Part shown: positions 2,778-64,000 of the stretch, piece after piece
Numbering within the stretch: position 1 is the stretch's first letter
Layout of the letters: each line of letters opens with the position of its first letter
From: Phoronis australis
Lineage: Eukaryota > Animalia > Phoronida
Length of the DNA stretch: 64,000 nt
Reading direction: 5' to 3'
NCBI GenBank assembly: GCA_002633005.1
Contig: NMRA01000254.1
Location: 238,546 to 302,545, forward strand
Made by a program: the position numbers and the translations under genes
Notes under the pieces: model-generated
What the model saw: the letters and a program-made list of their open reading frames with translations, nothing else
What the model was told of the DNA's origin: nothing
Database searches by the model: none

Positions 2778-3254
2778 GTACGTGTTGCAAGGTTCTGTAG
2801 CAGTGTGATCCTTTTCGGGAATTGCAACTTTCTCTCGTTCAGTGGCCATGCCAGACAGCAGCAAAGCTGTTGTTCTCGATTTCCTTCATATGGTAAACCA
2901 TTTTCTTGTAAGACTATCGAAGACAATTAGTTAAAGCTGAATGAGAGAAATTTTTAATGATTTGTTAAAGCAAATTTAAGAAACTCAGTGCCACACTTTA
3001 TAACAGTCTGCTTGAATATGATTGTGTGAAGTCTTCTAGAAAAAGGTTATGTAAGCACCCTTAATGCTCATTGTTTTTCATTGCCTAGCATCTTGCAAAT
3101 GCTTGGCATCACTAAGTATGGCCTACACTACTTCTTTTACGTTTGAGTCCCACATAAAAATTGCTGTGGACTCGAGACTTCTCATAATGGCTGCATTTTT
3201 CCCAGTGGTTGCCTTGCCAACTATGTTTCTTATACTTCTTTCATGTCATTGCAG

Positions 3255-3508
3255 GCACTCGCAAGGGAGAGCTGGTAATCTGGAGCCTGCGGACCGGCAA
3301 GCCTCTACGCCAGCTCATCGGCAACACCGGGGGGACCATGACCTTGAACCGTGTTTCCGCGCTGAGCGCTCACTCAGCTGAGATAAAGGACCTTACACTG
3401 TCCAAGGATGGCCGAATATTGGTGTCAGCGTCTGCAGACGGCACGCTGAGGTCATGGTCAATGGACACAGAGAAACTAATGCACACTCTGTCTGGACATA
3501 AGGATGAA
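3255..3508 (+). CDS. WD40-repeat protein, exon
   Basis: ttgcag acceptor (phase 1), GAA|gtaaga donor; canonical WD40 repeat AHSAEIKDLTLSKDGRILVSASADGTLRSW...GHKDE. Confidence 0.93.
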
Positions 3509-3539
3509 GTAAGAATTATTGTCTCACTCGAATCTACTC

Positions 3540-3708
3540 TCTTGTTCCCCACTCCCCCCTCCCCTCTATCCTGTGCTCTCTGCTCACCATCCCTGCCACC
3601 CTCTCTGGTTACCTCCTTCCAGCCTCCCTACATTTCTCCTCCCTCACTCCCTCCCCCCTCCCTCCAGCTCTTCCTCTGACTCTTCTCTCCATTCTCCCCT
3701 CCTCTCCT
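3540..3708. repeat. Polypyrimidine (CCT-rich) low-complexity tract in intron
   Basis: direct observation. Confidence 0.8.
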
Positions 3709-4311: not shown

Positions 4312-6834
4312 ACTGTTCCAGAGACAGATGGCACTAGTTCGCTTGTTTTAAGTGCTAATTTTGTTTCTGCATTTCATTTATTTTTATGTTAAGGATAAGA
4401 AGCTCATTAATGTGTAGATTGATTTGATTTAAACTGCAACATTATATAAAGCAGTTTCTTGAGCTTTTGACATTCTTAGTCGTTAGTAATTGTTTCTCAA
4501 ATCTGGGTTTGTGTGAGGAAAGCTGTGTACTAAACTTACAATGGCAGTCAATTGAACAAAGTGTATGACAAAGTTATGACTGCGAGATGATGAATCACTG
4601 TTGTTGACAGCACTCTCTATTGAGGCGTATGGTAATCAATGGTTGTCTGTTAGGTGGAGCCAGATTGGTTGGTTTGTTCTGGCATGCCTGATTGGTTGGT
4701 TTGGGTTAATACTGAACATGTTTTGTAACAATGCTGTTTTTAAAATGGAGAAAAAGATTAATATAGACATAAATATACCGTAAATTTGTGAAATAACGCC
4801 CTGGGTGCTTAAATTAGGAAACTGTAAAATGGTGAGGGGGGGGGGGCACTTGCATCAAAAATTAAAAACCAGATTGCGAGTTTTTCGTTTTTACTCAATG
4901 GTCAAGGTAAAATGCTAAATATTTCTTTGTCTATATTTGTCTTTTTACCCATTTTAATTTTATGTTTTAGCTGGTCATAGCTGGTAACTATTTACACCTT
5001 GATGAAAGCTATTCTTGTTGTAGATGTAGTAGTTTTTTAAAACCATTTTGAATCTGTGTAATAATATATATTTCTTGTGTTATTACTATATTTTTGTTTA
5101 TTTCGTTTACTAATTGCTTTTTAATTATTATTTATCGCAGACTTGCCAACTTGCTTGAGGAATCAAATTACTAGATCTGGTGGTCTACTGTTTTTTATTT
5201 TGCATAATATTTCCACGGTCTCTATTGGTTTCAGTGGAAAAGGATCTGAGCAGGTACTGGCTTTTCATCATGAGATCAAAGTTGCATAAAGTTTTAGTTG
5301 TTTGTAGTGAGTTCAAATGCAATTTGTGTCTATGCGAAATGATCAAGAAAACTTGTGGAACTGTTACATGTAATAGTTTAAATTTGCACCCCTGTGTAAT
5401 TTGAGAGTTGTGAAATCAAACAAATGAATTGGAGTACAAAGTCATGTTTTTGATTGCTGTAATTTTTCATGCCCACATATTTATCACCCAATTTGTCAGA
5501 AAAGTGGAATTGTGGTGTCAGAACTCTCAATACAAACAGTTACAAAAATCTTTTAGCGGTGGCTTCAACTTTGCATAAAATTGTCATGAAACAACACAGG
5601 ACAATTATGAGCATTTATAACTGGGCAAACTACTGGAAGAAAAACAGTACGTGACTTTGTGCTACAAAACCGTCAACAGTGCCATTCTAATTCTATTGGT
5701 TTGTGGTGCTACTGTACACTTAATCGTTTGCTGTTTAGCGGTGGTGAGGCTGTGAATATTAAATATTCTCGGCTGAAAATGTTGTTCTTGGACTATCTCG
5801 TATGAAATACAGGCAGTTCAACTAGTTCTTGTAGGTTATTTAAATTCTTGAAGCCTGTTAGCTTGGGTGGTACTATAATAGGCCATTGTGTATACTGCTT
5901 GTTTTTGTCATAGAATTGCAGAAGCTGTTGCTCTGTTGCTTAGCTACTAATTGTTAATTATTAACTCTGTTTTTTGGTGGTTTGATTTATATTTTGCATT
6001 CACCACCAAATGGTAGAACTCATCGCCAACTGTTGTTTTTGGTGTGCAATCACTTGACTTGAGAATTCCTTGCAGAAGTGGACATTTGAGCTGTGTGACC
6101 TTTTTCATGGATCTCTCAAAAGCAATTGATAAAGTTCCCTTTCATATTGATGGCAGGTGGCCCCTACCTAAGTCACTGTGACAATAGCTTTGATGTCACA
6201 GTTACTTGCGAGCTGTCTAGGGTTGCGGCAGTTTCGAACATTTTGATTTCAATCATCAGCTTTGTATATAGTAAAGACTCACCAATTTCCACAAAGATAT
6301 TAGCCAAAATTGACCTTTATTGTTCAAAGTTCAAAGGCCTCTGACCGACAGTTTCTCAAAACATTGTCTGGTAGTAGGTATGGTATAGAGGTATGATTTA
6401 GTTTGCTTCTCTTATATGAATAATGAATAATGAATAATCGACTTTTCCGCTATATTGTGCCCTAAATTGGTGTGGTTTTATTTTATCATTAACTTCTTAA
6501 CAAGGCAGTTCTCGTCCACACTCTTGTGCTATTTCGATGCAGTCGGAAATTTCCTGTCTGTTTGCTTTCATTTTTTGTGGTGATTATGGTAGATTGTACT
6601 AGTTTTCAGTCTGCAGAGTATAGGCGAAAAACAACGACTTGTGCCAGTGATTGTACGAGGTGGTGGGCGAGTCAATTCAAAAGCTGGCCCTTCATTGCAG
6701 CGGTTGTTGCGATCTTAAATCAGGTGGTTGTAAACCATTAGTGAATGCTCGCTTCCCACAGTATGTGAACTGTGAATCTCGTGTTAGTACTATTATCATC
6801 ATTGTGACCTTTACTATTTTTATTATTATTTTGA

Positions 6835-6840
6835 AATAAA
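6835..6840 (+). promoter_or_regulatory. Candidate polyadenylation signal closing a ~2.5 kb 3' UTR of the WD40 gene
   Basis: AATAAA at the end of a long T/G-rich, largely repeat-poor stretch downstream of the stop, followed by T-rich sequence. Confidence 0.4.
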
Positions 6841-7460
6841 ATATTGCTTACATTAAATTTAGTGATTCTTTTCTTAATCAGCACAAACTTACGCATTCAC
6901 CGGGTAAATTCGAGGATTTGGCATGTTTTTTCTTTAGCGTTTTCCTTAGTCCTGGAGAAAATACACGGCTTTTTACCGAAAGGACTGTTTGTAGCGGAAA
7001 GGTGTTTTGGTGTTGTTTCATATTAATTAACAAATTGTCGGAATTCTCGTTGTCGGTTGGGGTCTAACGATGTTGCTCATTCTTCGGTGTTCCCATCAGA
7101 GGGTTAGAGTAGTGCATGTTTCAAACCATGTTCATGTAACCTTCAAACAGGGATCTTGTTTCCGAATTAATTTCAGTTGGATACCTCGTCTGCACGTTCC
7201 ACAGATTTCGATAACCTTGCCTTGCGACTGTAAATGACAGATAAATATTGAACGAAATGAGCTATCACCAATAAATTAACCAAACCTGGCTTGGTGGTGG
7301 TGGTAGGGTCCGCTGACCACGGATCGAGGCACCAAAGAAATAAATAAAAATACAATGTTACAAAATTAGGTGATAATGTAATTTAGAACTACTTGTAAAA
7401 AGACCACAGTGTAGGAGAGATTATCGAAAACAGTTACACACGAAGCAGTTGAAAATAGTG

Positions 7461-9319
7461 CACTGATACGCAGTAATTGTTACATTTTACGCCAATGATT
7501 GTTACATTTTACGTTGCTAGGCCTCTCCTAAAATGTAACAAGTTGTTACATTTTATGTAATTTTACAATTTATGTCAAATGCACACGCGAGAAATGTACC
7601 ACTGTTACATTTTACGAAAGCGACGTCATATTTCATGAGTTTGCATGGTACACGGAGGAAAACGCGTTCTCGGATTGTTTGAATGAAATTCTATCAAGTG
7701 TGCCAGCTCAAATTTATAGATGTGTCCATATGTGCTTTCTATTGTTTTGTAACCTGGGTACTTTCTTGGTATAGTCAAAAATGTAGCCGTACAGTTTCAA
7801 TTCCAGACGAAAGAAATTTCCAGGATCAGTTAACAAGTTTTTTTATTGTTAAATCGTTCTTGCAATCTTTTGTGGGCGGTCGCAGGTAACACCCAATTAT
7901 GTGTCTGGCATTACAGTAAAAACACTTCCCTTGGTACCTCGTAAGGACAGAAACAATGACAGCGTATTCAATTTCGGGAGCCAATTTGATAGAAAAATAC
8001 CCGTTTTAATACACGGTAGCTGGATTTATTTCAGCCAGTGTTTTATTGCCTTGGAATCGTGGCTAATGCTCCACACGAATGAGACAAGACCAAAGTTTCT
8101 GATGCGGACGGGTTGTGTTTACCATCTTAGTTACGAACGATAATTTCTGGTGGAACGTGTTTTGAAGAGCTAAAAGCTGAAAGAAATATAATGGTTCCTA
8201 TGATGCTAAACCTGTCTGAAATAGCGGTGGTAACAGCTAATCAACCGTGACGTGTATGCGTAAAATGGGAGGCCTAGGTGGGGAAATAAGAAATATTTTG
8301 CCACTCTGAAAGGACACGGTCATTTTGCTCATACCGCGTGTAGGTCGATAGTTTAAAGGGGCAACACTCCGAAAAAAGCTGACTGGAGGCCTTGTGGACT
8401 TCCAAAACATGCACTTTCTCTTTCTATTATCTTTTAAGATAAAAAAAATCAATGAAAATTGGTATTTGGTCAATGATCGTTAGTCCAAACTAGGAACCAG
8501 GTTCCTATGTCCGAAGCACATATACATGTAAATAAAGACAGAGTCTGGACATTCTAGTATTAATGGACGTGAAGTCACGTGTCTCATGAGGCGCCATTTT
8601 TGTGTTGCAGCTCGCTGCCAACAACACGCATGGTTGTAGACAAATAAAGATGTTTGGTATATTAAACGTTTTGCTACACCGAGATGATTTTAAAATCTTT
8701 GACGATCATGACGTATTAGCACTTTGCTAAAACATGTATTATTTTTATTGCACTGTGTCATTGTTAAATAAATTCAAAAATATCAACAATGATAACAATA
8801 ATGATAACGATACCGATAACTAGTAACAGTAGTGAAAGTAGTAATAGTAGTAATGGTAGTAATAGCAATAATAATAATATAATAGTAATAAAATGATAAT
8901 GGGTATCCGTGTCAGTCTGGAGGGCATTCCTGTAGAGGAGGTATACGAAAAGTGCCGCCCAAAAGGATGCTTTTTCATAGCAAAAATGCTCTCCAATATG
9001 GTGCCATTTATAACAAAATTATCTAAAGGGTGCCTTTTATGAACAGAAATGTGTGAAAATTGGAATTTGTACGCAAAATTAGTCTCTAAATGGGCCAATA
9101 TTTTGTCCAAGCCCACACTCTAAACGATAAGTATTCAAATTTTTCGGGCGCCACCCCTCGTCTAAAAATACTCGAGTGTCCCCGGCCGTGTCATATACTA
9201 CTTGTTCCTGATTTTAGTCATTTTCTTTGAAATATGACATAGGTTTCGTAAAATGTAACAATAGTACATTTCTCACATGTGCATTAGACATAAATGCCAC
9301 ACTTTACGGCGTATCGGTG
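7461..9319. mobile_element. Non-autonomous DNA transposon with bipartite TIRs and subterminal TGTTACATTTTACG repeats
   Basis: cactgatacgcagtaa (7461) is inverted against ttacggcgtatcggtg (ends 9319); second inverted block about 7568-7635 vs about 9228-9296; another TIR copy at 30189. Confidence 0.8.
8785..8900. repeat. Degenerate (AAT/AGT)n microsatellite
   Basis: direct observation. Confidence 0.8.
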
Positions 9320-10228
9320 CACTCAAGTTCATAACTTTCAAAACAAACGTTCGTAAAATAATTTATAACAGAGGATAACGCATGGGTAAATCTGGAAGAG
9401 TATAAGAAGAATTGTCAAGAATTTTTGAGTAAATTTTGATAACTCCTTGCACGTACTAAGTCTGTTTAGGCCGTAGTCACAGCTCTCCTATCTTTCACCT
9501 CCGTGACCACTTTCTGGGGGAAACGGGAACTTTGCATTAAACCCATCTACACATGTTCAAAAGTCAATTTCAAAAAAGTTCCCAAGAATACACTTGCACG
9601 TTTAGTTAGAATTTTAATTTAAAAGTTGGAAAAAATATAACCTCAATTAATGTGTTAGCCACCAGGTGTCAGCGCAATCAAATGCCAGAAAAATCTTGAG
9701 TCCATACCTTTCCCCTTCAAAAGCCGTCTGCTTGGCAAGAAAACATTCATCAGAGGACAGGCAGCAGATGTTATCCTGCTGGCTTAATAGCTAGATTGTT
9801 TACTGCTACTGACTACATTGGATAGTATCAATTCTTGGATGGGTGTTCAAGTAATAGGCAACCACCAAGGACCAAGGCTCAAAAAACAGCAGACAGCAGA
9901 ATTGAGGAAAGCCAAATCAAGTGGGCACGAGTGTCATCGTAATGAAACAATTCTTGGCACATTCCTGAATCATTTTGTGTTTCGCAAAGAACAGTTTTGG
10001 GAGAGCTAGGACCATGAATTATTGAACGAGTGTGCGACTTCACAATAGACTGGCAAGATGTCTGCCCCTTGCAGCATTCATGTGTCAGGTTCTGCTCAAA
10101 TTTCTGAGCTGGAATTTTCAGATATTACCTGGTCTAAGGCTACTACAAACAAACGTATCAACATTGCGTGCAGGAGAAGTATCATTGCTGAAAAGTTTTT
10201 AAGTTTTTGTGAAAAAACAGAGCTCTTG

Positions 10229-10481
10229 TCATGCGCGCACCCAAGGGTGGGGGGGCTTGAACGAGCCTCCTCCATTTGGTAAAGCGGGTAAAAAGGTCAG
10301 CCTCAGAGAAACAAAAACTCCAAAACAGTTGAAAACGAGACAAAAGTTCATTAAAAAGGCAGGAACTACCAAAACTCGGCGAACGCACAATTCGTAGCTC
10401 TGAAGTACCCCGTGAATCTTAGTGAATGTCCACATTCTCAAAAACTCGAGCCCCCCATTCATTAGGCTTGGTGTGCCCATG
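10229..10481. mobile_element. hAT-type MITE nested in the Academ coding remnant
   Basis: catgcgcgcaccca + G-run ... C-run + ttggtgtgcccatg termini; TSD not clear. Confidence 0.5.
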
Positions 10482-10887
10482 CTTCTATCACAAGCAGTGT
10501 TAAAGACACTTAACAGATATAACAACAATCGAAAGAGCTCTTAAAAAAAGAAGAGACCAAGCTGATGATGGAAATAATACTGAGCCCACGAGAAAATTAA
10601 GGAAATTGTCACTGTCAGTTACATGTACATTTAACAGTGCTCAAAGAAATATACCTTATATGTCTTGCCACCACAATGAACCATTTGCCACAAATCAAAT
10701 TTCATCACAGGGGAACTTCACAAACAAAAGGAAAGTTGAAAACCTATACCAGTTCCAAACATTCAATTGTAAATACCTATTCTCAATTTTAAAAGGTGTC
10801 ATTTATGGTAAATAATGTTTAGTTTAGGTCACACTACAAAAATTATTTTGCTTGATAAATTTGCAGTAATAGTCGTCTCAATCTCAA

Positions 10888-11175
10888 ATGTACTGGCAGT
10901 ATTTTTTACCNGGGTGGCTTTTGGAGCAGGTTAATCTGAAGCTCCCCCGGATGACTCTGCCTTTAGCCCCAGAAAATGCCATGGAAAACGTTAATGGCAA
11001 GTGTAAAAGAAGTGGTTGTAGTAAAAAAATGTGCTCTTGTTGGAATTCATGCATTCCATGTTCTAAGTTGTGTGACTGTCCAGACATTGTAAACAGGGTG
11101 TCTCAGTCAAAAAACAACTTTTGATGACAAGGATGTTGATATAAATGATGAAGGAGTGGATGAAGAAACATAATA
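10888..11175 (+). pseudogene. Academ transposase C-terminal Cys-rich (CXC/Cys8) remnant
   Basis: ORF 10888-11124 cysteine pattern, then frameshifted acidic tail DDKDVDINDEGVDEET. Confidence 0.75.
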
Positions 11176-14100
11176 AGTGGACGCCATGTTGTTAAAGAAC
11201 TTTAAATTTCCAACCTCATGGAAAATATTGACAACATTTAATCATACTGGTGACTGTGGGGACTGTTGGGTGTATCGTTCCCTGAGACAGTTGACAGTGA
11301 ACAGCAATGTGGATAATAATTAATTGTGACTATTAATGAAAGTGATGACAGTGAATTTGTTGCAGAAGTGTTGGAAATGTATATTGTTCATATATGTAGG
11401 TTGTGATATCAAATCTTCGTCAAGTTCCATCCAAATGTTTAACAGTATTTGTTTTTTGGCAGATCAGAATATAGTAGTATGTTTTCTGGCCAACAAGAGG
11501 CGCTGCTAAAATATTTCTTTTTCTCTTTTTTGAGCAATTTCCCACCTAATATCATAATATATATCACTTTTCTTGTTCCGTAACTTCAAATGAACAAATC
11601 CCAATCAAATTGTCATTCAGTTTTTGTCTAGTGTTGTTGGTTTTTGAAGATAGGTTTTCTGTGCCAAAGTATGCAAAAAGTCAGATTTTTGAGTTCAAAT
11701 TTCTCGAACACGAGCAAGTCAAAGCTTGATAACTTTTTAGATTCTTAAAGTATAGTACTTAATGACCTTCAAAACACCAAAATTATCTTGCCCCAAAAAG
11801 TGGCCACGGAAGTGATTTTCTAAGCTTCCTAGAGTCGAATGGACTATTGGCCTAGTTTAGAAGGAAAGCGCTTTGGACGCACTGCACGTCAGTCTGTAGA
11901 AAAATACTATACAGCAACGGTATTCTTTCTCTGACACAGTTACAATTTGATTTTAGTTATGCTCTGCTTTTATCACTGAAGTGAGACAATGATGCGTAAC
12001 AGCGAACAAGGAATATCATGCTGAAATCACTAAAACACAGTTTAGTGATAAAAGGTTATCAATGACTTAAAATCTACGTACTTGCTCCCGGAAAATCTTC
12101 AATTTGAGAAATGAAATTCATCGGTAGTCATTTCTGATTATCTACAATTTCCAAAAACGAACCGAACGTACGCTTTTTGGCAGACCCCGTTCCCCTCCCA
12201 GCCTCCACCCGCTGCACTAACGCATACTATGACATTCTACAATTTATAAAGACACGCCGGCCGTTAAACCCCTTTCCTACCGTACGTCTTCGAGGTAGAC
12301 ATTGCAAATAGGATAATTGTGTCCCTTAACATATCGATGTAAGAAAGGTTGAAGAAAAAGCAAAGGAGCCATAAGCTCATATCGTGTTGTAAACCTAAAC
12401 ACTGAATTCATTCTTGCAAACCTGGCACCAATCTTTCAGGCAGTTCTCGTTTTTGTTTCTCCCCAACTCATGCAAGAAACGAAAACGGGCATGATTGAGA
12501 GAACAAGTGCGCATGATTTTGAAGGCACCCGAAATCAGTAGCTATACAACTAACGGTGTGCTTGATTTATCGCTAAATTTCCCAGCATTGCTATTCAACG
12601 GGTCTAATGATTGGCTGTTCATTCGGCGTTTTCTTATCCACCCGACGTACGAAAATCGAACGAACAGTCCAGCTACTGTAATCCGAGTGACGTTCTCTGT
12701 TTTCATGGGGCGTTCCGCACTGCGTCGGCGATGTAAGTAAATGAAAGCACTTCAATGGGCTTGCAAACAGTTGCCAATAATCGCGAGATGAAGGACGGTC
12801 TTCAATAATAAAATATCCTTAAATGGAGTTAATCCTACTCGGCGTAGCCTGCACCGGAGAACTTCGTCGTCTTCAATAAGGTAAGATTTCATATAGACAT
12901 GAGAAAACGCATACGTTGCTACACGTATCATATGTTCTGACATATGGAAGACGCAGCTCCGTTGAATCAGCCGACAAGCCAGTACTTCCGTTAACGCAGG
13001 CAACAGTTTTAAAACGATTATAATATCATCCATAATGATGAAAATGTCATCCAGCTAAAACGAGTCCTCAGTGTGTCTCCGGGAACACTCCACATTTTTA
13101 GACGATTTGTCCCAGGAAAATCGAGTATGATATGCTGGAAAAGGGACACATTTCTATTACGAGCTTCCATGAAAAAGGAATTTTACTCCATTATTCCAAA
13201 AACACTAGAATTCTGTAGAACTAGATTCTATTATACAGGTAACCCTTTCATTTATACAAAAAGTATAACGTTTAATCTCACGACGCTATATATTTTTTGA
13301 AAGCAAGAACGTTTATAGGGCCATAAATTGGATCACACCTATTTCAGTGAAATTAAAGAAAATCAGAAATTCATATTTCGATGTTCATAGCAAAACAGCA
13401 CCATCAACGTGATTAAACTTCTTAGGGTAGAAAAATTCAAAACTATTATTAAGGCTGATTTCTAGTTCTCAATTAGCCATTTTCTTCACTTGAAAGACTA
13501 TTTCGGTGTACATAAATAAAATCTTAAAAAATATATAAATACTACCGTTCAGAATAAGTGTCGCTCACTGCTGTACGATTCAACTTCATCACTGAAAGTA
13601 AGGCAGGGGAAATTATTTTAAAAAGTCGAGTCATTTTTAATGGAAAATATGGCAAATGATAATCTAACTCAAGATGCAGACTTACCGTAATACTGAGTGA
13701 GTGCTAATATTAGAGACTGATACGCTTATTTCATAAAAAGTACCGTAAGATCTTTCAAACCAGTCGATACGTACAGCATGCATTTCAGTTTCGTTACGTT
13801 GTAATCCTACACCACTCAGAGAAATCGTAACCATAGTTAAAATGTGGGAAAATTAAGTTGGTTCAAACAAATGACATTTCCATTCTTATTGTCCCATAGT
13901 TTCATAAAACTGGGAAAAATATTTGGATTCTACGTAATCCAAAGGTTCCGGTCAGCTATCAGAATTTGTCTTTAAATATCTTTGACGAAAGCAAAATTTC
14001 ATATACGTTAAGGGATCATGTTAGACACTGTACGTTTTGAGCTCACATGCACGCAGCTCATCTCAAATATCGCATCTGTACCACGTCATAGGTGACATGC

Positions 14101-53044: not shown

Positions 53045-53842
53045 TTGAAAACACGACCAAACTTACAGAGTCGCTCGTAGTGTTGAAACAATCTCCTCTC
53101 TTCAGGTGTGCAGCGATGTACGTGTAGCAAAGCACCGAGAGACATCACAAACAAACACATTAAACCACTAGCTACATGTATACATTTCGAGACTGCATGT
53201 CTCATCATCAGGCAATAACATATACGAAGCGAAATAATCAGTGAAATTCACGTGACATCGGTAAGAGGGACCTACAAGCAGAGTGTGAATGTAAAACACG
53301 TTAGGAAGCCCATAAGCCTTTCGAAACAGAGCCAGCGTGTGGTACACACTTTGAACTGCTCATTCGACACAGCTTTTCGTGACTGATCAATAACGACTAC
53401 AAAATCTTTAGCGGAAAGTGTCATTTTCAACATAGCGAATGATGGTATTGTCTACTATTTCTTGCCTAGTTATATTTCGGCCATGTTGATGTAGAAAATG
53501 ATTAGTCAATTTTCACAGACAGGCAATTCACACGTGAACTTTAATATGGAAATGATTCTAGCACGGTCTGTAGGGTCAACAGTTCATCACGCGAACAGTA
53601 AACAAAGATATCATCGACATAGCGGACATAGATATGCTGAGCTGATAATTTCGCTTCGTTTATGTTCATTCCACTTATTGCCTGATGATGAGACATGCAG
53701 TCTCGAAATATAACTAGTGTTATGATTTGTTTGTTTGTTATGTCTCTAGGTGTTTAGCTACATAATTGCGAGATTGTTTCGAAACTCACGAGCTACTCTG
53801 TATCTAGCTTCCAAGCAAAACGTTTAGTCGGAGTTTTTGAGA
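53045..53842. repeat. Inverted repeat pair (about 200 bp arms), each with a hammerhead-like core as in Penelope-type pseudo-LTRs
   Basis: ttattgcctgatgatgagacatgcagtctcgaaat (53675-53709) is exactly mirrored at about 53184-53218; flanking arm homology on both sides. Confidence 0.7.
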
Positions 53843-55006: not shown

Positions 55007-55285
55007 CCTGTGACCCGTTTGATGAAAGTGATTTCAGACTTAAGGCACTAATTTGGTCTTACGCTCAAACTTCACGTTGAATTACTGAAAAAGGTTTAGC
55101 TATGTAATTACAAGTGCACGGAAGTCTAGAAATAACTGCGTAATTTACCTAGTACTTAGCAGTAATGAATATTGTCTGGGAGGTTTTTGCACTTTTGCAT
55201 AAGTGAGACTTATTTTTCAGAAATAGTTGTTTGGAGCGTAAGGCCAAACTTAAGTCTGAAATCACTTTTCAGGAAGCAGACCCTA
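55007..55285. mobile_element. Harbinger/Tourist-type MITE
   Basis: aaagtgatttcagacttaag / cttaagtctgaaatcacttt IR plus inner ttggtcttacgctc / gagcgtaaggccaa IR. Confidence 0.7.
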
Positions 55286-56048: not shown

Positions 56049-56713
56049 TTATTACTCTGCGCGTGTAAGCGCAGAGTACTGTTGTTCCTGGGGTTTCTTC
56101 AATTTTGTTCTTATTCTTATTACTGTGCGCGTTCAAGCGCAGAGTTTTACTGTTCTACGTATTTTATCTTCTTATTCTTATTATTCTTAATCTTCTTCTT
56201 CCTTCCTTTTCATATTGTTATTACTCTTACATTCATTCATTTAGAACAATAATATTCATTGTTATTGATAAGATAGGTAAGGGATTTATATTGATAATAT
56301 TTTTTCGACCCTAAATGCACTAGGATTACCTGAAACGGGTCAATTAGTGCATTTTTTCAAAATGCTTCTTCTACAGTTTTTCAGATATACTCTTCGAATT
56401 TTGTTAACAAGTAGGGAGTAAAGAAGTGCATCAGAAATTTACACGGATTTCCAATCGGACCAAGGGAACCGAGTTTCCGGGTCAAAAGTCATTAAGTGCA
56501 AAAGTGATTTTTGAGCTAGACCTAATAATGCACCGGAAGAGGTCAATTAGTGGAAAGGTCATCAAAAAATTAATATGTAATTTCTCCTACAATTTTAAAG
56601 AATTCCTTTTCATATTGGTAAACGAGTTGCTGTCAGTAACTTCCCATAATAATAACACTAATACGCACGCGCAGAGTCCGTTATTGTCACGCCGTGACAC
56701 TAATCTTTCTAGT
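56049..56713 (+). mobile_element. Helentron-associated (HINE-like) element with doubled 5' end
   Basis: 5' actctgcgcg..cgcagagt hairpin twice (about 56054 and 56122), (CTT/ATT)n microsatellite, two core repeats (ggtcaattagtg), 3' subTIR cgcgcagagt, hairpin tgtcacg-c-cgtgaca, CTAGT end. Confidence 0.78.
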
Positions 56714-56908
56714 TAGTGTTGTAATTGTCAACGCTTGGCAGTGTCTATTATACATATACAAATGTACATTTTATTGTGCGTCAGACGTCTACAAGCCACA
56801 AACTCGGACCCACTGAGCAACACTGTCGAACGGCCTTTGTTGGCTATGAGGCTCTTCACAACAGGAATTTTAAAGTCTGTCAGTTTATTTGATAAAAGAT
56901 GTGGAAGG

Positions 56909-57166
56909 TAGATAAACATTCGTCATTTCTTGTCAACCTTTATTGAAAGAATGATGGAGACCTAGAAGTACAAGTAAAGAGAATGCTTACTGTATAGCTC
57001 AAGGGTAATGACAATGTACTATAGACGGGATATAAAGTGAATACTCGTGGAAAAGGTGATAATCCCTACCTCTATGTAATTTCAACGTGTAGTCACTAAG
57101 ACAATGGTGGGAAGCTAGCTACAGAGACACCTAGTGGTTATAGTATAAACTATATATAATTCTCTA
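56909..57166 (-). repeat. 3' LTR (258 bp)
   Basis: direct repeat of 62719-62976 with 4 substitutions counted by eye; termini TAGA...TCTA. Confidence 0.97.
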
Positions 57167-57175
57167 CCTCCCCCT
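57167..57175 (-). promoter_or_regulatory. Polypurine tract
   Basis: AGGGGGAGG on the minus strand, directly abutting the 3' LTR. Confidence 0.9.
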
Positions 57176-60100
57176 AAGTTATGGAGGGACGTAATAACTA
57201 AGAGTAATGTATTATGAAGTAACAAAATCGTCCAGCCAGGCCGGTTTTCGACGTTCCCGAATAGACCGTCGAGGGGCCGGGGGTTCTGCAGCAGGGCAGG
57301 GCTCGGAAGAGCTCAGGACAGGCGGAGGATCTGTAGTGGTCACGTTAGGTGCTGGGTCGTGTGAATGACCGTCCGGAAGCTGTGCGTCGACGGTCCCGCG
57401 CGACAGTGAGTTATCAGGTGTGGGGGGTGGACCAGCGTTGCGAGTGACCAGTATGTCAGGGAGTGCAGGCCTGGCTTGGACGAGTGGCCGGGCAGGAATG
57501 TACTTCCGTAGAAACCGTCTGTTGCGGAGAGTGACACGTCCAGAGCCATGAACTCGCACGACGTATTGGTCGAACTGTCTCACCTCTATCACCAGGCCCG
57601 TCTTGTCCCAGCGGAGTGGCTCCGGTCCGGTTTGATTTTGGATGCGGACGAAATCACCGACAATGAGGGGACGAAGACGTTTGGTGTGCTCAGAGATCAG
57701 CTTCTCCGAGACCTTCATATGTCGATGGCGCAAAGCGGCCTCGCGCAGATTCAGGGTGTCAGTCCAGGTGTCGTGGGGCTTGTAGCGACCGGGCAATATC
57801 GGGATAAAATCTTTTATAGGACGACCGAAGACACATAGAGCTGGTGACAATCTCGTGTCTTTATCTGGGGTGTTACGGTACTGTAACATCGCCCGCTGAA
57901 AGGCAACCGTGTCCAGCTCGCCGTTTGGTCCAGTGTTGTCCGTAATGAGTCGCTTGATTGTTTTCACGCCAATCTCGGCTCGACAGTTGCTGTGGGGGAA
58001 AGCGACGGAGAAAACACGATGGTGGACACCCCATGACGAGAGTAGGTTCGTGGTAGCAGAGGACGTGAATTCTGGGCCGCCATCACTGGATAACTCGTCG
58101 GGTATGCCGAAAGTGACGAAACAACGGCGTAAACTGTCCACGAGACCTTTGAACCCCGAGTGAGCGCGCTCAACAATAGGCCAGTTTGAGTAACGATCGA
58201 CGATAACGAGGTAATGGAACCTTTATATGTGAAGAAGTCGGCACATACACACTGAAACGGGTAGACGGGTAAAGTAGGTGGTGTGGGAGGGGCATGTGGC
58301 TGGGATGGTGACATGCGATTGCAATGGTGACAACCCCGACGTCTCTCAGCAATGTCGTTAGTTATCCCTGGCCAGAAGACGGAAGCGTCAGCCCGAGCAG
58401 TCATAGAGGATATGCCTTGGTGGGCAGAGTGGAGCGAATCCATGATAGATGACCGTAAGGCAGGAAGAATGATGACGCGATCTTTATAGGTGATGACGCC
58501 ATCTATGGTGGACAGGTAGTCGCGAAACTGGTGGTAAGGCCGTAACGCCTCGGTTAAGGCTTCTCGTTGGTCGGGCATGCCAGATTCGATGATGCCTAAG
58601 AGGGTATGTAGGTCCTCGTCACTGCTGGTAGCCTCACGGACACGGTCCCATGTTACACATTTAAGGGAGGTAAGGGTGCAAGTGGCTGTAATGTGAACAC
58701 CGCGGTCAATATCAGTATCGATGGAAGCGACGTCGTCAGGGAGGTGAAGCTGCCCCCTTCTGCCGGTGGGGTGTCTGGAGAGAGCATCTGCCGCCTTGTG
58801 ACGCACGCCGGGGATGTGAACGATGGGGAAGCGGTATCGTAAGGTCTTCTCTTTGAGGTTGCGTAGGCGGGTGTTTGGGATATCCTCTAAAGCTCTGTCG
58901 GAGAAGACTTTGACAAGTGGTTTGTGGTCGACGGCGATCGTTAGGTCGGTGCATCTCAACACAAAGAAGCGAGCCTTGTCCAAGGAGTCAGCAACAGCCA
59001 GGGCCTCGCCTTCGATTGGGGCATATCGGGTTTCGGCAGAATGGGTGAACCTGCTGCCGACGAGTGTCACCTTCCAACCGGATGGACAACAGAATGGCCT
59101 CGTCTTGGAGCAATGGCAGTGTTTCTGCAGTAACCAGAAGCCGACTCCTGTCTTGGACCAATCGGTTGCCAGGCAAGTTGGTTTAGTCTTGTCAAAGATG
59201 CGCACACCTTCCTCGATCTGACGAATGATGACTTGCTTGGATTTGACAAAAAGTTGCTCCAGCTTTGTGCTCCAGACAAAGGGGGCTCCTTTCTTTAAGA
59301 GCTGGCGGAACGCCAAGGTCTCGTCGGCCATGCTGAATGCATACGAGACTTGGTTCAGGAGGCCAAATCAGGAGGGCATGTCGGTTATGTTTTTAGGCGT
59401 GGGGAACTCGAGTATGCTGTTCAGGTATTGCTTTGACGGGCGAACACTATCACTGGTGATTTCAAACCCGGCAAATTCGACAATGTCTTGGCCAAATGTG
59501 AATTTATCGGGGTTGAGGACAATTCCGTTTCGACCGCAGACATCCAACCATGCGCATGCCTGATGAAAGCTGTCTTCGAGGTTAGTTGCCCATAGTAACG
59601 TGTCGTCGACACATTTGGTGTGGTTGGGGATGTCAGCCACGATTTCGTCAAATCGACGAGTGTAAGCGTCGCCAGACGCAATGTAGCCTTGCGGAGCTGC
59701 GCAGTATCTGTAGCGACCCCAAGGGGTGATGAAAGTGGTGTAACGCAGAGAGGCACACTATGGTATCCATTCCACGCTTCGAAGACAGTCTTCTTCGTGC
59801 CACCGGGGATGGATCGAGCTTGGTGGAACGGGGAACGCGTGTGGTGCGTTTCTCGCAAGGCATGTCTGTTGAGGGGTTGCAGGTCTACAGTGCGACGACA
59901 CGTGCCATTTTTCTTCGCGCAGACGACCATCCGGTGGCACCATGTGACCGGTTCCCCGACTGGCACAGGTTCGATCACACCTAACTGGACGTCTTGGTCC
60001 AAGCCAGCTTTCACCTCAGCCTGCCAGTGGAGGGGAACTGGGACAGGGGAATGGTGTGCGACTGGGGTTGCGTTGGGGTCAATCATCAGGTGCATGGGCG

Positions 60101-61163
60101 GCCCGCTCATCTGGGGGAGCGGCTGATGTTGGCAGGTATTCAGAGTGCTGGCCTTGTAATAGTCCCGTAGAAAGGTCTCAAGCTCCGCCCTGTTGTCGTC
60201 AGTGGCCGGACAAGGCGGCGCAGTAGGTAGCGGAGGAGGTTTCTCACGCCAAGGACAGCCACAGGGTGCACAGGATTCAATTCCGTCAGTGTGGGTCGCA
60301 GGAGTGGATGCTGCATCACCAACGGTAGGGAAACTGTCCGTGATGAGCTGTAGGGCAACACAGGCCTCTCGGCTAAGGTAGAAGTTGTCCGTACTGTCAG
60401 TGACGTATACGATCTGTTTAGTGTGTAGGAGTTGGCCGTCGCTTGTTGCACCAGAGATATGGAGGAAAGTGGCACCCAGGATGCGGATACCTTCGTTGTT
60501 GGCAGCGTGCATCTTCATGTCGACTGGCACTAGATTGCGGCGTGTCACACCGAGGCCTTTAAGGGTCTGAAGTCCAGAGAGACAACTCTGGCATCCCGTG
60601 TCGGCCATGCATGCAATTTGAGCGTTCGGGTACCAGGAGGGTGCGAGGTCCGAGAATCCGAAGCGGGAGTAGTCATCTCTGGAGACACGAGCTGTGAGGT
60701 TGATGAAGGGTTGGGGTAGTGACCTTTCCCTCAACCAAGCATTTGTGAGCTCGTCGTAGTTGTGGTGACTCAGTGCGAGTGATCGTTTTAGGACCTGTGG
60801 GTGCGCGGAGATTTCACATAGGGAATCGAAGACAGCACTAGCGGTGTCGGGGGTTTTACCGTTTTGTGGTTTGCTGCGACAAGTGGCCTTATAGTGGTGG
60901 AGCTTGCCACAGTGTTCGCATGTGTGACCGTAGGCGGGGCATACAGTTCTGCGGGTTTGCAGCGGCGCTGTGCGGCCATGGCCCTTGCCGCCGCAATAGA
61001 TGCAGGGTGGCACGTGCTGTTTTGGTTGATTTTGATGTTGTTGTTGTCGCCGGTAGGTGCTGGCGGCTGCGGCACCGTGGGAGGCAAGGAGGCGGGTGGC
61101 CGATCGTTTACCAGCTTCCTTCGCTTCGACAAAGCGTAAGGTTTCTTCCAGAGTCATGTCCTG

Positions 61164-61564
61164 GGCCCGGTCTCCAATCTTTTTACTCGAAATGGAACTC
61201 GAAATTAGGTTTGGCATTTTCTACTCTACTTTTGGGCGAACTCAAGATAATTGTCTATTATTCTAAGCTCGAGTACACAATAACTTACGTAGATAATTTA
61301 TTGCCCTTAGTTCACAGTTTGTAAACCCAATATTAAAGCAATAAGTTCGAGTTTGAACTCGAAATTTCGAGTTTTTACTCGAGCTTGTAGCACGAACATA
61401 AGGGTCTTCAAGAGCAAACTTGAACTAGAAACTCCTATGCATAAACTATAATGTATTCGAGCACAGTCTGATAACCAATTATTTTATGTTCGCACAAAAG
61501 GAGCAGAGAAATTGCCAAGAATAGTTTCGAGTTCGTTTCGAGTACAAAGATCAGAGACCGGGCC
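61164..61564. mobile_element. PIF/Harbinger-type MITE inserted into gag
   Basis: GGCCCGGTCTC...GAGACCGGGCC termini with long imperfect TIRs, flanked by CTG / CAG; removing it restores LLGDNN-Q-DMTLEE in frame. Confidence 0.9.
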
Positions 61565-61692
61565 CAGGTTGTTATCCCCAAGAAGTTCAAGTTGAATTTC
61601 TGAGTCATTAATACCAAGGGATAGACAGTCGCGTATGATGGGGTCTGTGTAATTAACGGCGTAGTTGCAGTTAGGGCATGGTAAACTGAACT

Positions 61693-62648
61693 TGCAAATG
61701 CTGGCTTGGCCCCGCAAGCGGGCGCCGAAAGCGCGTATGGATTCGTCGCGGTTTTGTCGCATCCCGTGCAAGGTGGCCCTAGCGACCATTGCATTCTCAG
61801 CACGTACGGCCAGGGCGCGCATGGCGTGGAGGACATCCTCTTCCGTTCTCTCCGTGAGAGACCCTCCGGCGTTGCGGGTGAGGTCTTTGCGGAGTGGCTC
61901 ATCGCAACATTCCAGGAGTTGAATAATCCGGTCTTTGCCCGAGATGTTAGTCGCCGTGACGTAATCGGACCAGCGGGAAAGGAAATATTGCCAGTTCTCA
62001 CTCGTCCCAGCCGAGGCGATGTGAGGCCGTTTGACCTTTTCAGCAGGCACAGCATGAGGGTGGGAGCTACCAGGGACTGGTGACGTGTGACCTGTGGCGT
62101 GAGTTGTCAGTAGAGCGGCCACAATAGCGGGGTCGACGTCAGGCGTCATGTAGGGGCATCCCTCAATAGNTGCAAATGTTGGCTTGGCCCCGCAAGCGGG
62201 CGTCGAAAGCGCGTATGGATTCGTCGCGGTCTTGTTGCATCCCGTGTAAGATGGCCCTAGCGACCATTGCATTCTCAGCACGTACGGCCAGGGCGCGCAT
62301 GGCGTGGAGGACATCCTCTTCCGTTTTCTCCATGAGAGACCCTCCGGCGTTGCGGGTGAGGTCTTTGCGGAGTGGCTCATTGCAACATTCCAGAAGTTGA
62401 ATAATTCGGTCTTTGCCCGAGATATTAGTCGCCGTGACGTAATCGGACCAGCGGGAAAGGAAATATTGCCAGTCCTCACTCGTCCCAGCCGAGGCGATGC
62501 GAGGCCGTTTGACCTTTTCAGTAGGCACAGCATGAGGGTGGGGGCTACCAGGGACTGGTGATGTGTGACTTGTAGCGTGAGTTGTCAGTAGAGCGGCCAC
62601 AATAGCTGGGTCGACGTCAGGCGTCATGTAGGGGCAGCCCTCAATAGG
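61693..62648 (-). repeat. 478-bp tandem duplication of the gag 5' region (possibly an assembly artefact)
   Basis: two copies differing at about 21 sites, with a lone N at the junction (62170). Confidence 0.9.
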
Positions 62649-62705
62649 GCATTGAATGATCGGCATTGCGACGCTTGAGAAGTCGGCAGAAGTAGGTCAC
62701 TGAAT

Positions 62706-62718
62706 TAGGTCTCCATCA
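62706..62718 (-). promoter_or_regulatory. Primer-binding site complementary to the element's own LTR (self-priming type)
   Basis: minus-strand TGATGGAGACCTA abuts the 5' LTR and pairs perfectly with TAGGTCTCCATCA at 62774-62762. Confidence 0.85.
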
Positions 62719-62976
62719 TAGATAAACATTCGTCATTTCTTGTCAACCTTTATTGAAAGAATGATGGAGACCTAGAAGTACAAGTAAAGAGAATGCTTAC
62801 TGTATAGCTCAAGGGTAATGACAATGTACTATAAACGGGATATAAAGTGAATACTCGTGGAAAAGGTAATAATCCCTACCTCTATGTAATATCAACGTGT
62901 AGTCACTAAGACAATGGTGGGAAGCTGGCTACAGAGACACCTAGTGGTTATAGTATAAACTATATATAATTCTCTA
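62719..62976 (-). repeat. 5' LTR (258 bp)
   Basis: direct repeat of 56909-57166; TATA-like at 62806-62803 and AATAAA at 62754-62749 on the minus strand. Confidence 0.97.
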
Positions 62977-64000
62977 GAAGGATAATAGAATTTTTTAACA
63001 GTTCATGATGAATTGTAAAGTAGGATTAAGCTTGTCTCCCCTTGGGCCCTCGACTGTAAGATATGTGCCATACAGTGCACCAAATAACGTCTTTGAAGGA
63101 TGAAAGAAAACTGAAATATCTTTGTAACATAAATGAACGCCCCACGTCATTGAAAAGTGGAAAATTTAATACCTACCTTCTTATTATTTATGGAAGCATT
63201 AAGAAAATAAGAGATGCCATTAATAGCGACACTGCTATCAGTATAGATATTCACATGGCGACGATTCCTTTGAGAAAAGATCATTGGCTGATCGAGGGCG
63301 GTCAAGGCGGTCAGGCCCCCCTTTTCCCTGGATTTTAGTGATGTCCAATCTAGAATTTTCAAATTCTTGATTTGGACACCCCTTTTTAAAAATCCTTGAT
63401 CTGACCCCTTTAAAAGTCCTGGATCCGCCCTGCTCATGCAAGATTATCAGACGAAGTGCACAAATAGAGAAATTTCAAACCAAATGCATGCCTTCAAATG
63501 ACCAGCTCACAAACACCAAATTTCAAAGGTTAAAACGATGCCACGTGTCTTCAATGTTGCCTGAAATCACCGAAACCCTGTCTAATCAGACAAATCGAAA
63601 CTACGTTTTTGGCAGCTGCTATCTTGCTGAGTTGAAGCAGACGATCGCGTAATACGTTATAGCAGGAAGAGATAACCAGGAAGGGACAACTGTTTTAGCG
63701 CATTTTAACGTATTTTCAAAGGTGATTTCAAAAGTAAATGTTAAAGTAGTCTGGAATCCAAGCATTGTGTTTGAAAGCTTAACTCTTTAGCTATAAAATG
63801 ACACCACTTTTGTCCCCAAAGACTTCATATTAATGGCACTGGGATGCTTTGAACATGACTTGTTTTACCCTTCCAAAAGATGCCTCTTCCCAGGCATGTA
63901 CTCGGGCACGATCCTCTTTTTTGAACCAACAGATGTCACTAATATATGCAAATGAGGCTCGCATCGTCTACGTCATACGACGTCATACGGCGCGAGCTTC

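Follow-up and report, generated by a model that had tools for sequence, protein, structure and literature searches.

The CA end that is joined to target DNA ranks with the best-conserved traits of integration by retroviruses and by retrotransposons that have long terminal repeats (LTRs), and a joined 3' end reading CA is the rule for retroviral-type integrases (PMC5329712; this and the other papers cited here are drawn on for the parts of each that were available). Non-canonical ends listed in the LTR_retriever preprint include TA...TA in AtRE1 and TA...CA in TARE1 (10.1101/137141). Self-priming of reverse transcription has been reported in Tf1/sushi, Tcn1 and TAR Copia (PMC6317226), and in Tf1 the first 11 RNA bases pair with the primer-binding site (PBS) until an RNase H cut releases the primer (PMC7175516). 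The subject of this study is a Ty3/gypsy LTR retrotransposon on the minus strand of a 64,000-nucleotide stretch of Phoronis australis DNA (the window: assembly GCA_002633005.1, contig NMRA01000254.1, positions 238,546 to 302,545), in which two LTRs, a PBS, a polypurine tract (PPT) and a target-site duplication (TSD) are all present (Table 1). The element and its clade differ from the canonical integrase substrate in ending with TA (or GA) rather than CA. The copy is broken, and very probably it stems from a lineage with TA...TA LTRs (TA...GA in one family) and 5-bp TSDs, whose members likely prime themselves and whose integrase likely does not need the C.

The boundaries of the element are sharply defined. 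Across 258 nt its two LTRs align with each other without a gap and differ by 4 mismatches; identity drops abruptly at either end, and on the plus strand both copies read TAGATAA...TTCTCTA. Every LTR end, inner or outer, is TA (four of four), so that the TSD is not the only feature fixing the boundaries. With the ends fixed, a 5-nt match is expected by chance about once in 790 cases, and a motif-blind search over shifted ends found GAAGG as the nearest 5-bp repeat. The first-pass annotation had described these TA ends with their inverted TAGATAA and TAGAGAA termini, the GAAGG duplication, and a PPT and PBS that adjoin the LTRs without a spacer, and each of these features is upheld by the gapless alignment and by the positions of the two tracts. 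Contig depth is several-fold higher in LTR bins than in internal bins, with LTR variants, although depth does not equal copy number and the mapping, dominated by the high-copy element inserted in gag, does not bear on the ends of other copies. A search of a viral contig collection found no relative of the element.

Related families display the same ends. Eighty loci were collected, of which 24 have a repeat pair around the integrase; four of these pairs (L002, L007, L022 and L036) are contig-end overlaps without flanks and were excluded, leaving 20 two-LTR relatives of about seven families, with ends set by hand. TA begins the LTR in 20/20 and finishes it in 19/20, and an exact 5-bp TSD is present in 17/20. 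Ten of the 20 represent one family at different sites, and nine of these ten have an exact TSD. A purine tract lies 3' of the integrase in 57 of the 80 loci and is followed by TA in 53 and by TG in none; the first base after the tract is a pyrimidine by construction, making the second base the actual test. Short inverted ends, TAG...CTA, are matched in many families, and no target-site preference was seen beside 18 TSDs.

Further clade members and controls were taken from host contigs within bacterial assemblies. Five of these species-representative assemblies (G001-G005, the source of L083-L089) contain 7-150 retrotransposon RNase H matches each and are heavily contaminated with eukaryotic host DNA. 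One motif-blind end caller was applied under a single rule to 26 clade rows and 31 control rows, the latter reduced from 33 by removal of two off-frame motif matches inside the clade elements L071 and L075. The clade rows comprise 15 TA..TA, two TA..GA, four without a TSD, five other and no TG..CA, and the control rows 14 TG..CA, eight without a TSD, nine other and no TA..TA. In the TA..GA family, found in two assemblies, both LTR copies end in GA and the 5-bp TSDs are exact. Its members, L162:2747-8206 and L163:2551-15133, belong to the same clade and have a 13-nt self-primer; L163 also contains a nested TG..CA element at 6689-13715. With one family ending TA..GA, the common rule is that the C is lost and that T is usual but not required. 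The earlier proposal that this integrase joins TA-3' ends thus holds for most of the clade, but is better worded as a C that is no longer needed. Additional families from other assemblies have the same anatomy. The clade comprises at least 13 families, and on these sequence comparisons TA ends are a clade-wide lineage trait rather than the mark of a mutated copy.

The second departure concerns priming. The window PBS does not begin with TGG and is complementary to the element's own LTR rather than to the 3' end of a tRNA (no search against a tRNA library was made). Over its first 13 bases it exactly complements LTR positions 203-215, and this complementarity reaches exactly to the LTR edge. 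The segment 62700-62774 is predicted to fold at -26 kcal/mol (z -4.7, equalled in 0/200 shuffles). An exact 12-16-nt PBS complement lies within the element's own LTR in 15 of 21 elements and in 0/200 shuffles of each. PBS sequences differ among 13 family representatives, yet at least 12 bases pair in 12 of them. Most primer starts lie in an initiator-like pyrimidine-A-(G/C)-TT context, as judged against the consensus in PMC3601003. In 14 TG..CA controls the PBS-LTR complement is 0-6 nt long, and TGG occurs within 4 nt in 14/14. Self-priming is well supported because complementarity persists among families whose PBS sequences differ, which bears out the earlier suggestion of self-priming. As read from these sequences, the 5' end of the element's own RNA, and not a tRNA, is thus the likely primer of reverse transcription in this lineage. 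This is likely an origin separate from Tf1/sushi and, as such, an additional origin of tRNA-free priming, in animals and outside the chromoviruses.

By analogy with Tf1, transcription would start at the first base of the primer, the first ~13 RNA bases would pair with the PBS, an RNase H cut after ...CA would free the primer, and DNA synthesis would proceed from the last base of the LTR. Standard integrase chemistry would then join both strands via TA-3' with a 5-bp stagger. Whether the cDNA is flush or trimmed before joining bears on this scheme. The first-pass annotation had proposed a blunt cDNA as fitting self-priming; the self-priming part is well supported, but the zero spacers do not by themselves point to flush ends. 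The nearest tRNA-primed TG..CA relatives (L143, L148, L149, L167 and L170) have a 0-nt spacer too, and therefore a zero spacer is not tied to self-priming. Untrimmed cDNA is somewhat favored at the U5 end, since the primer complement stops at the LTR edge, provided that the primer is fully removed; at the U3 end the chances are about even.

The strongest alternative, possible although we lean against it, is that extra cDNA bases, the GA or GG of the purine tract and the TG of the primer site, are trimmed by the integrase in retroviral style. The last two bases of the tract beside the LTR are a conserved GA or GG, which could be a removed 2-nt extension, and nearly all PBS start with TG. In Ty3, two purines beside the tract are reportedly trimmed, while Tf1 is said to keep its primer. 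In foamy virus, 3' processing occurs at one end only (PMC6784120). Against trimming, the exact stop of the primer complement at the LTR edge would leave a flush U5 end after full primer removal. The 95 loci inspected for LTR-LTR junctions yielded none with extra bases, but none without them either.

The integrase itself suggests how the end preference could have shifted. Its best relative of solved structure is Ty3 (E 1.6e-18), and near the catalytic Glu the sequence can be aligned gaplessly with the Ty3 and prototype foamy virus (PFV) integrases; PFV residue numbers are presumed here, as fitted to that alignment. Among the 112 homologues parsed out of 120, the position of PFV Gln215 is His in all 112 and that of Lys219 is Arg in 111, while in the clade the Gly218 position is Cys or Ser and the Arg222 position is Ile, Val or Leu. 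For rows whose ends could be read, His and Arg are both present in 13/13 clade members and both absent from all 15 CA-ending controls. The clade forms one side of a 99/99 branch, and of a 100/99 branch in an earlier tree. The helix beside the catalytic Glu, with His and Arg at the Gln215 and Lys219 positions and neither Gly218 nor Arg222, may underlie the shift in ends. Loss of Arg222 or Gly218 as the only cause was rejected, as both are also replaced in some CA-ending controls. The His and Arg residues are, from alignment, candidates for changed end recognition; they remain candidates because the clade was sampled by query likeness and a single branch carries the changes. Comparison with CA-ending relatives, which the first-pass annotation had suggested, thus reveals a distinct helix but one that may coincide with the new ends by chance.

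A more ambitious interpretation, offered tentatively and with less than even confidence, is that this is an undescribed and widespread animal Gypsy lineage in which, on one branch, self-priming arose independently of Tf1/sushi and the integrase was re-specified from CA to TA or GA by a rebuilt DNA-end helix, and which may also be the missing mobilizer of biv-TRIM (see below).

Several observations weigh against these readings. Support for the lineage ends comes from related families, not from other P. australis copies, and the 20 relatives amount to only about seven families that were fetched by query likeness, making their clustering in trees partly circular. A long-branch warning stands beside the clade in the earlier tree. 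The residue and terminus differences lie on one branch only, amounting to a single event and perhaps a coincidence. Gly218 is also replaced in 2/15 and Arg222 in 3/15 of the CA-ending controls. The PFV stretch that contacts the CA is mainly Glu221-Lys228 (PMC3554684), and the two diagnostic residues, His and Arg, lie just before it. Finally, six of the 21 elements have no exact 12-nt PBS complement.

Some of these points bear on a second alternative, an unlikely one, in which integrase preference is unchanged, any N-A end is tolerated, and TA is set by reverse transcription through RNase H cuts at the PPT and the self-primer. The variable penultimate U5 base of the TA..GA family is consistent with such tolerance, as is the variation of CA-ending controls at the Gly218 and Arg222 positions. 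In every well-paired representative the base after the primer is also a T, which in folds pairs with the last A of the LTR, but no fold pairing was found that would exclude C at this position. Moreover, both ends, although fixed by different steps, left TG and CA together, their inverted ends are still matched, and no CA end occurs among the 26 clade rows, all of which argues against this alternative. That TG..CA ends were altered after insertion in the window copy, by deamination or a process akin to repeat-induced point mutation (RIP), or that its boundaries are misplaced, has a negligible probability: in its favor, both TG to TA and CA to TA would be changes of the C-to-T type, and the LTR is TpA-rich (1.35), but changes at four sites would be required, relatives with 100% identical LTRs have the same ends, which refutes this reading unless other P. 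australis copies differ, and copy-specific mutation or RIP was rejected on the internal region, which has neither TpA excess nor CpG depletion (TpA/ApT 0.74, CpG observed/expected 0.96).

The coding region follows the Ty3/gypsy order of gag, protease, reverse transcriptase (RT), RNase H (RH) and integrase (IN), and its damage is evident in split RT and integrase frames, a stop behind the RT core and an insertion in gag. Intact relatives have one gag-pol frame of ~1600 aa. The frame with the gag C-terminal part and protease gave no Pfam match. No chromodomain was found at E 0.05 in three intact relatives or at E 0.001 in the window frame. The RT motif is CVDD, mostly C[IV]DD among 42 parsed homologues (P0001-P0120), and not YxDD; a literature search for CVDD together with retrotransposon found no paper. 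A gag block of ~477 nt stands twice (61693-62647, 96% alike), flanking a single N at 62170. This duplication is likely an assembly overlap, in which two haplotypes or copies were fused by the assembler, and contig depth is low over 61912-62399 within the duplicated area. The gag insertion, which resembles a miniature inverted-repeat transposable element (MITE), lies at a CCWGG-like site and is missing from the sample's other contigs. The interval 61162-61567 is skipped by contigs from each of the four runs, and its depth exceeds that of the internal region thousands-fold. Elsewhere in the window, further inverted-repeat pairs at 53123-53762 and 55025-55268 are likely MITEs, a high-copy repeat lies at ~56300-56790, and 3188-3679 is a WD40-repeat exon of a host gene, consistent with eukaryotic host DNA.

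Table 1. Features of the element, in window coordinates. Sequences and termini are in the sense of the element.
Feature	Position	Strand	Description or basis
5' LTR	62719..62976	-	258 nt, TAGAGAA...TTATCTA
3' LTR	56909..57166	-	258 nt, TAGAGAA...TTATCTA
TSD GAAGG, left copy	56904..56908	.	sequence comparison of flanks
TSD GAAGG, right copy	62977..62981	.	sequence comparison of flanks
PPT AGGGGGAGG	57167..57175	-	adjoins 3' LTR, 0-nt spacer
PBS TGATGGAGACCTA	62706..62718	-	adjoins 5' LTR, 0-nt spacer; no TGG start
Predicted self-primer TAGGTCTCCATCA (LTR 203-215)	62762..62774	-	exact PBS complement; AATAAA 7 nt downstream
gag N-terminal part	61687..62666	-	translated frame
MITE-like high-copy element with 33-nt inverted ends, inside gag	61160..61568	.	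inverted-repeat search, contig mapping
gag C-terminal part (2 Cys/His knuckles), protease (DTG motif), RT N-terminus	59424..61220	-	translation; frame breaks near end
RT catalytic part (CVDD), separate frame ending at stop	59371..59757	-	RVT_1 E 4e-6
RNase H, integrase HHCC domain; frame interrupted near 58220	57967..59367	-	PF17917, PF17919, PF17921
Integrase core and C-terminal tail, including catalytic Glu	57215..58222	-	rve E 2e-9

With its TA or GA ends and the accompanying integrase changes, such a lineage offers a natural enzyme-substrate pair for testing what reads the C. Annotation that demands TG..CA or a tRNA PBS would under-count such elements in invertebrate genomes. The earlier remark that such families escape LTR finders requiring TG..CA holds only for motif-restricted runs; the LTR_retriever preprint already lists TA...TA. 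No paper was found in a search for animal Gypsy clades outside the chromoviruses that combine TA ends with self-priming; Repbase, GyDB and most subscription papers lay outside this search, and families of this kind have probably been deposited there. The combination of TA ends and self-priming is likewise unreported in the available parts of PMC8632968, PMC10886601, PMC13524379, PMC5329712, PMC2774666 and PMC12619909.

Within Gypsy, the window clade resembles the Mag lineage in its single ~1600-aa gag-pol frame, RT-RH-IN order, short LTRs and lack of a detected chromodomain. Homologues that carry names are from bivalves, a sea slug and a hydrozoan, and the name "K02A2.6-like" borne by homologues presumably points to Mag. 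A survey of molluscs names clades of the Mag lineage (A/B/C, MolGy3 and MolGy11) and finds Mag abundant, and the parts of it available are silent on LTR ends (PMC6238403). On the other hand, the LTR models of Mag A and Mag C are TGT...ACA (PMC3601003, Table 3), whereas the window clade has TA..TA and no TGG PBS. Mag membership can be offered as a lead, the trees containing only unnamed rows and no named Mag reference.

Self-priming elements provide a second comparison. As in Tf1/sushi, Tcn1 and TAR, the PBS of the window element adjoins the LTR, a segment of which is its complement. In contrast to Tf1/sushi, the window clade has a primer of 12-16 nt and no chromodomain in the three intact relatives, and the Sushi LTR model is TGT...ACA (PMC3601003) rather than TA..TA. 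Selgy, considered as a self-priming animal clade, was set aside because it is a Selaginella clade.

Other systems share the unusual ends. AtRE1 and TARE1 also have TA at LTR ends, but they are single families of plant Copia, whereas the lineage described here is Gypsy with at least 13 families. The Zam/errantivirus group of insects is, like the window clade, an entire Gypsy clade without TG..CA, but its ends read AGTTA...TAAYT (PMC3601003) and it is tRNA-primed (PMC13524379). The DDE enzymes of IS3EU and GingerRoot are related to integrases and act on TA..TA ends, a precedent for use of TA by this fold (PMC10045372), although these are DNA transposons with a 6-bp TSD, no RT and no HHCC domain. 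The bivalve element biv-TRIM, for which no autonomous partner is known, lacks a tRNA PBS and has GGGGAGA as its PPT (PMC6934838). The same tract matches the PPT of the window clade, for example at L013:8132-8143, and although biv-TRIM is non-coding, the window clade may be its missing mobilizer, a likeness that consists of the PPT and the absent tRNA PBS. Each feature of the window lineage has a precedent elsewhere; it is their co-occurrence in animal Gypsy elements, TA ends and self-priming together with an altered integrase helix, that makes the CA rule testable.

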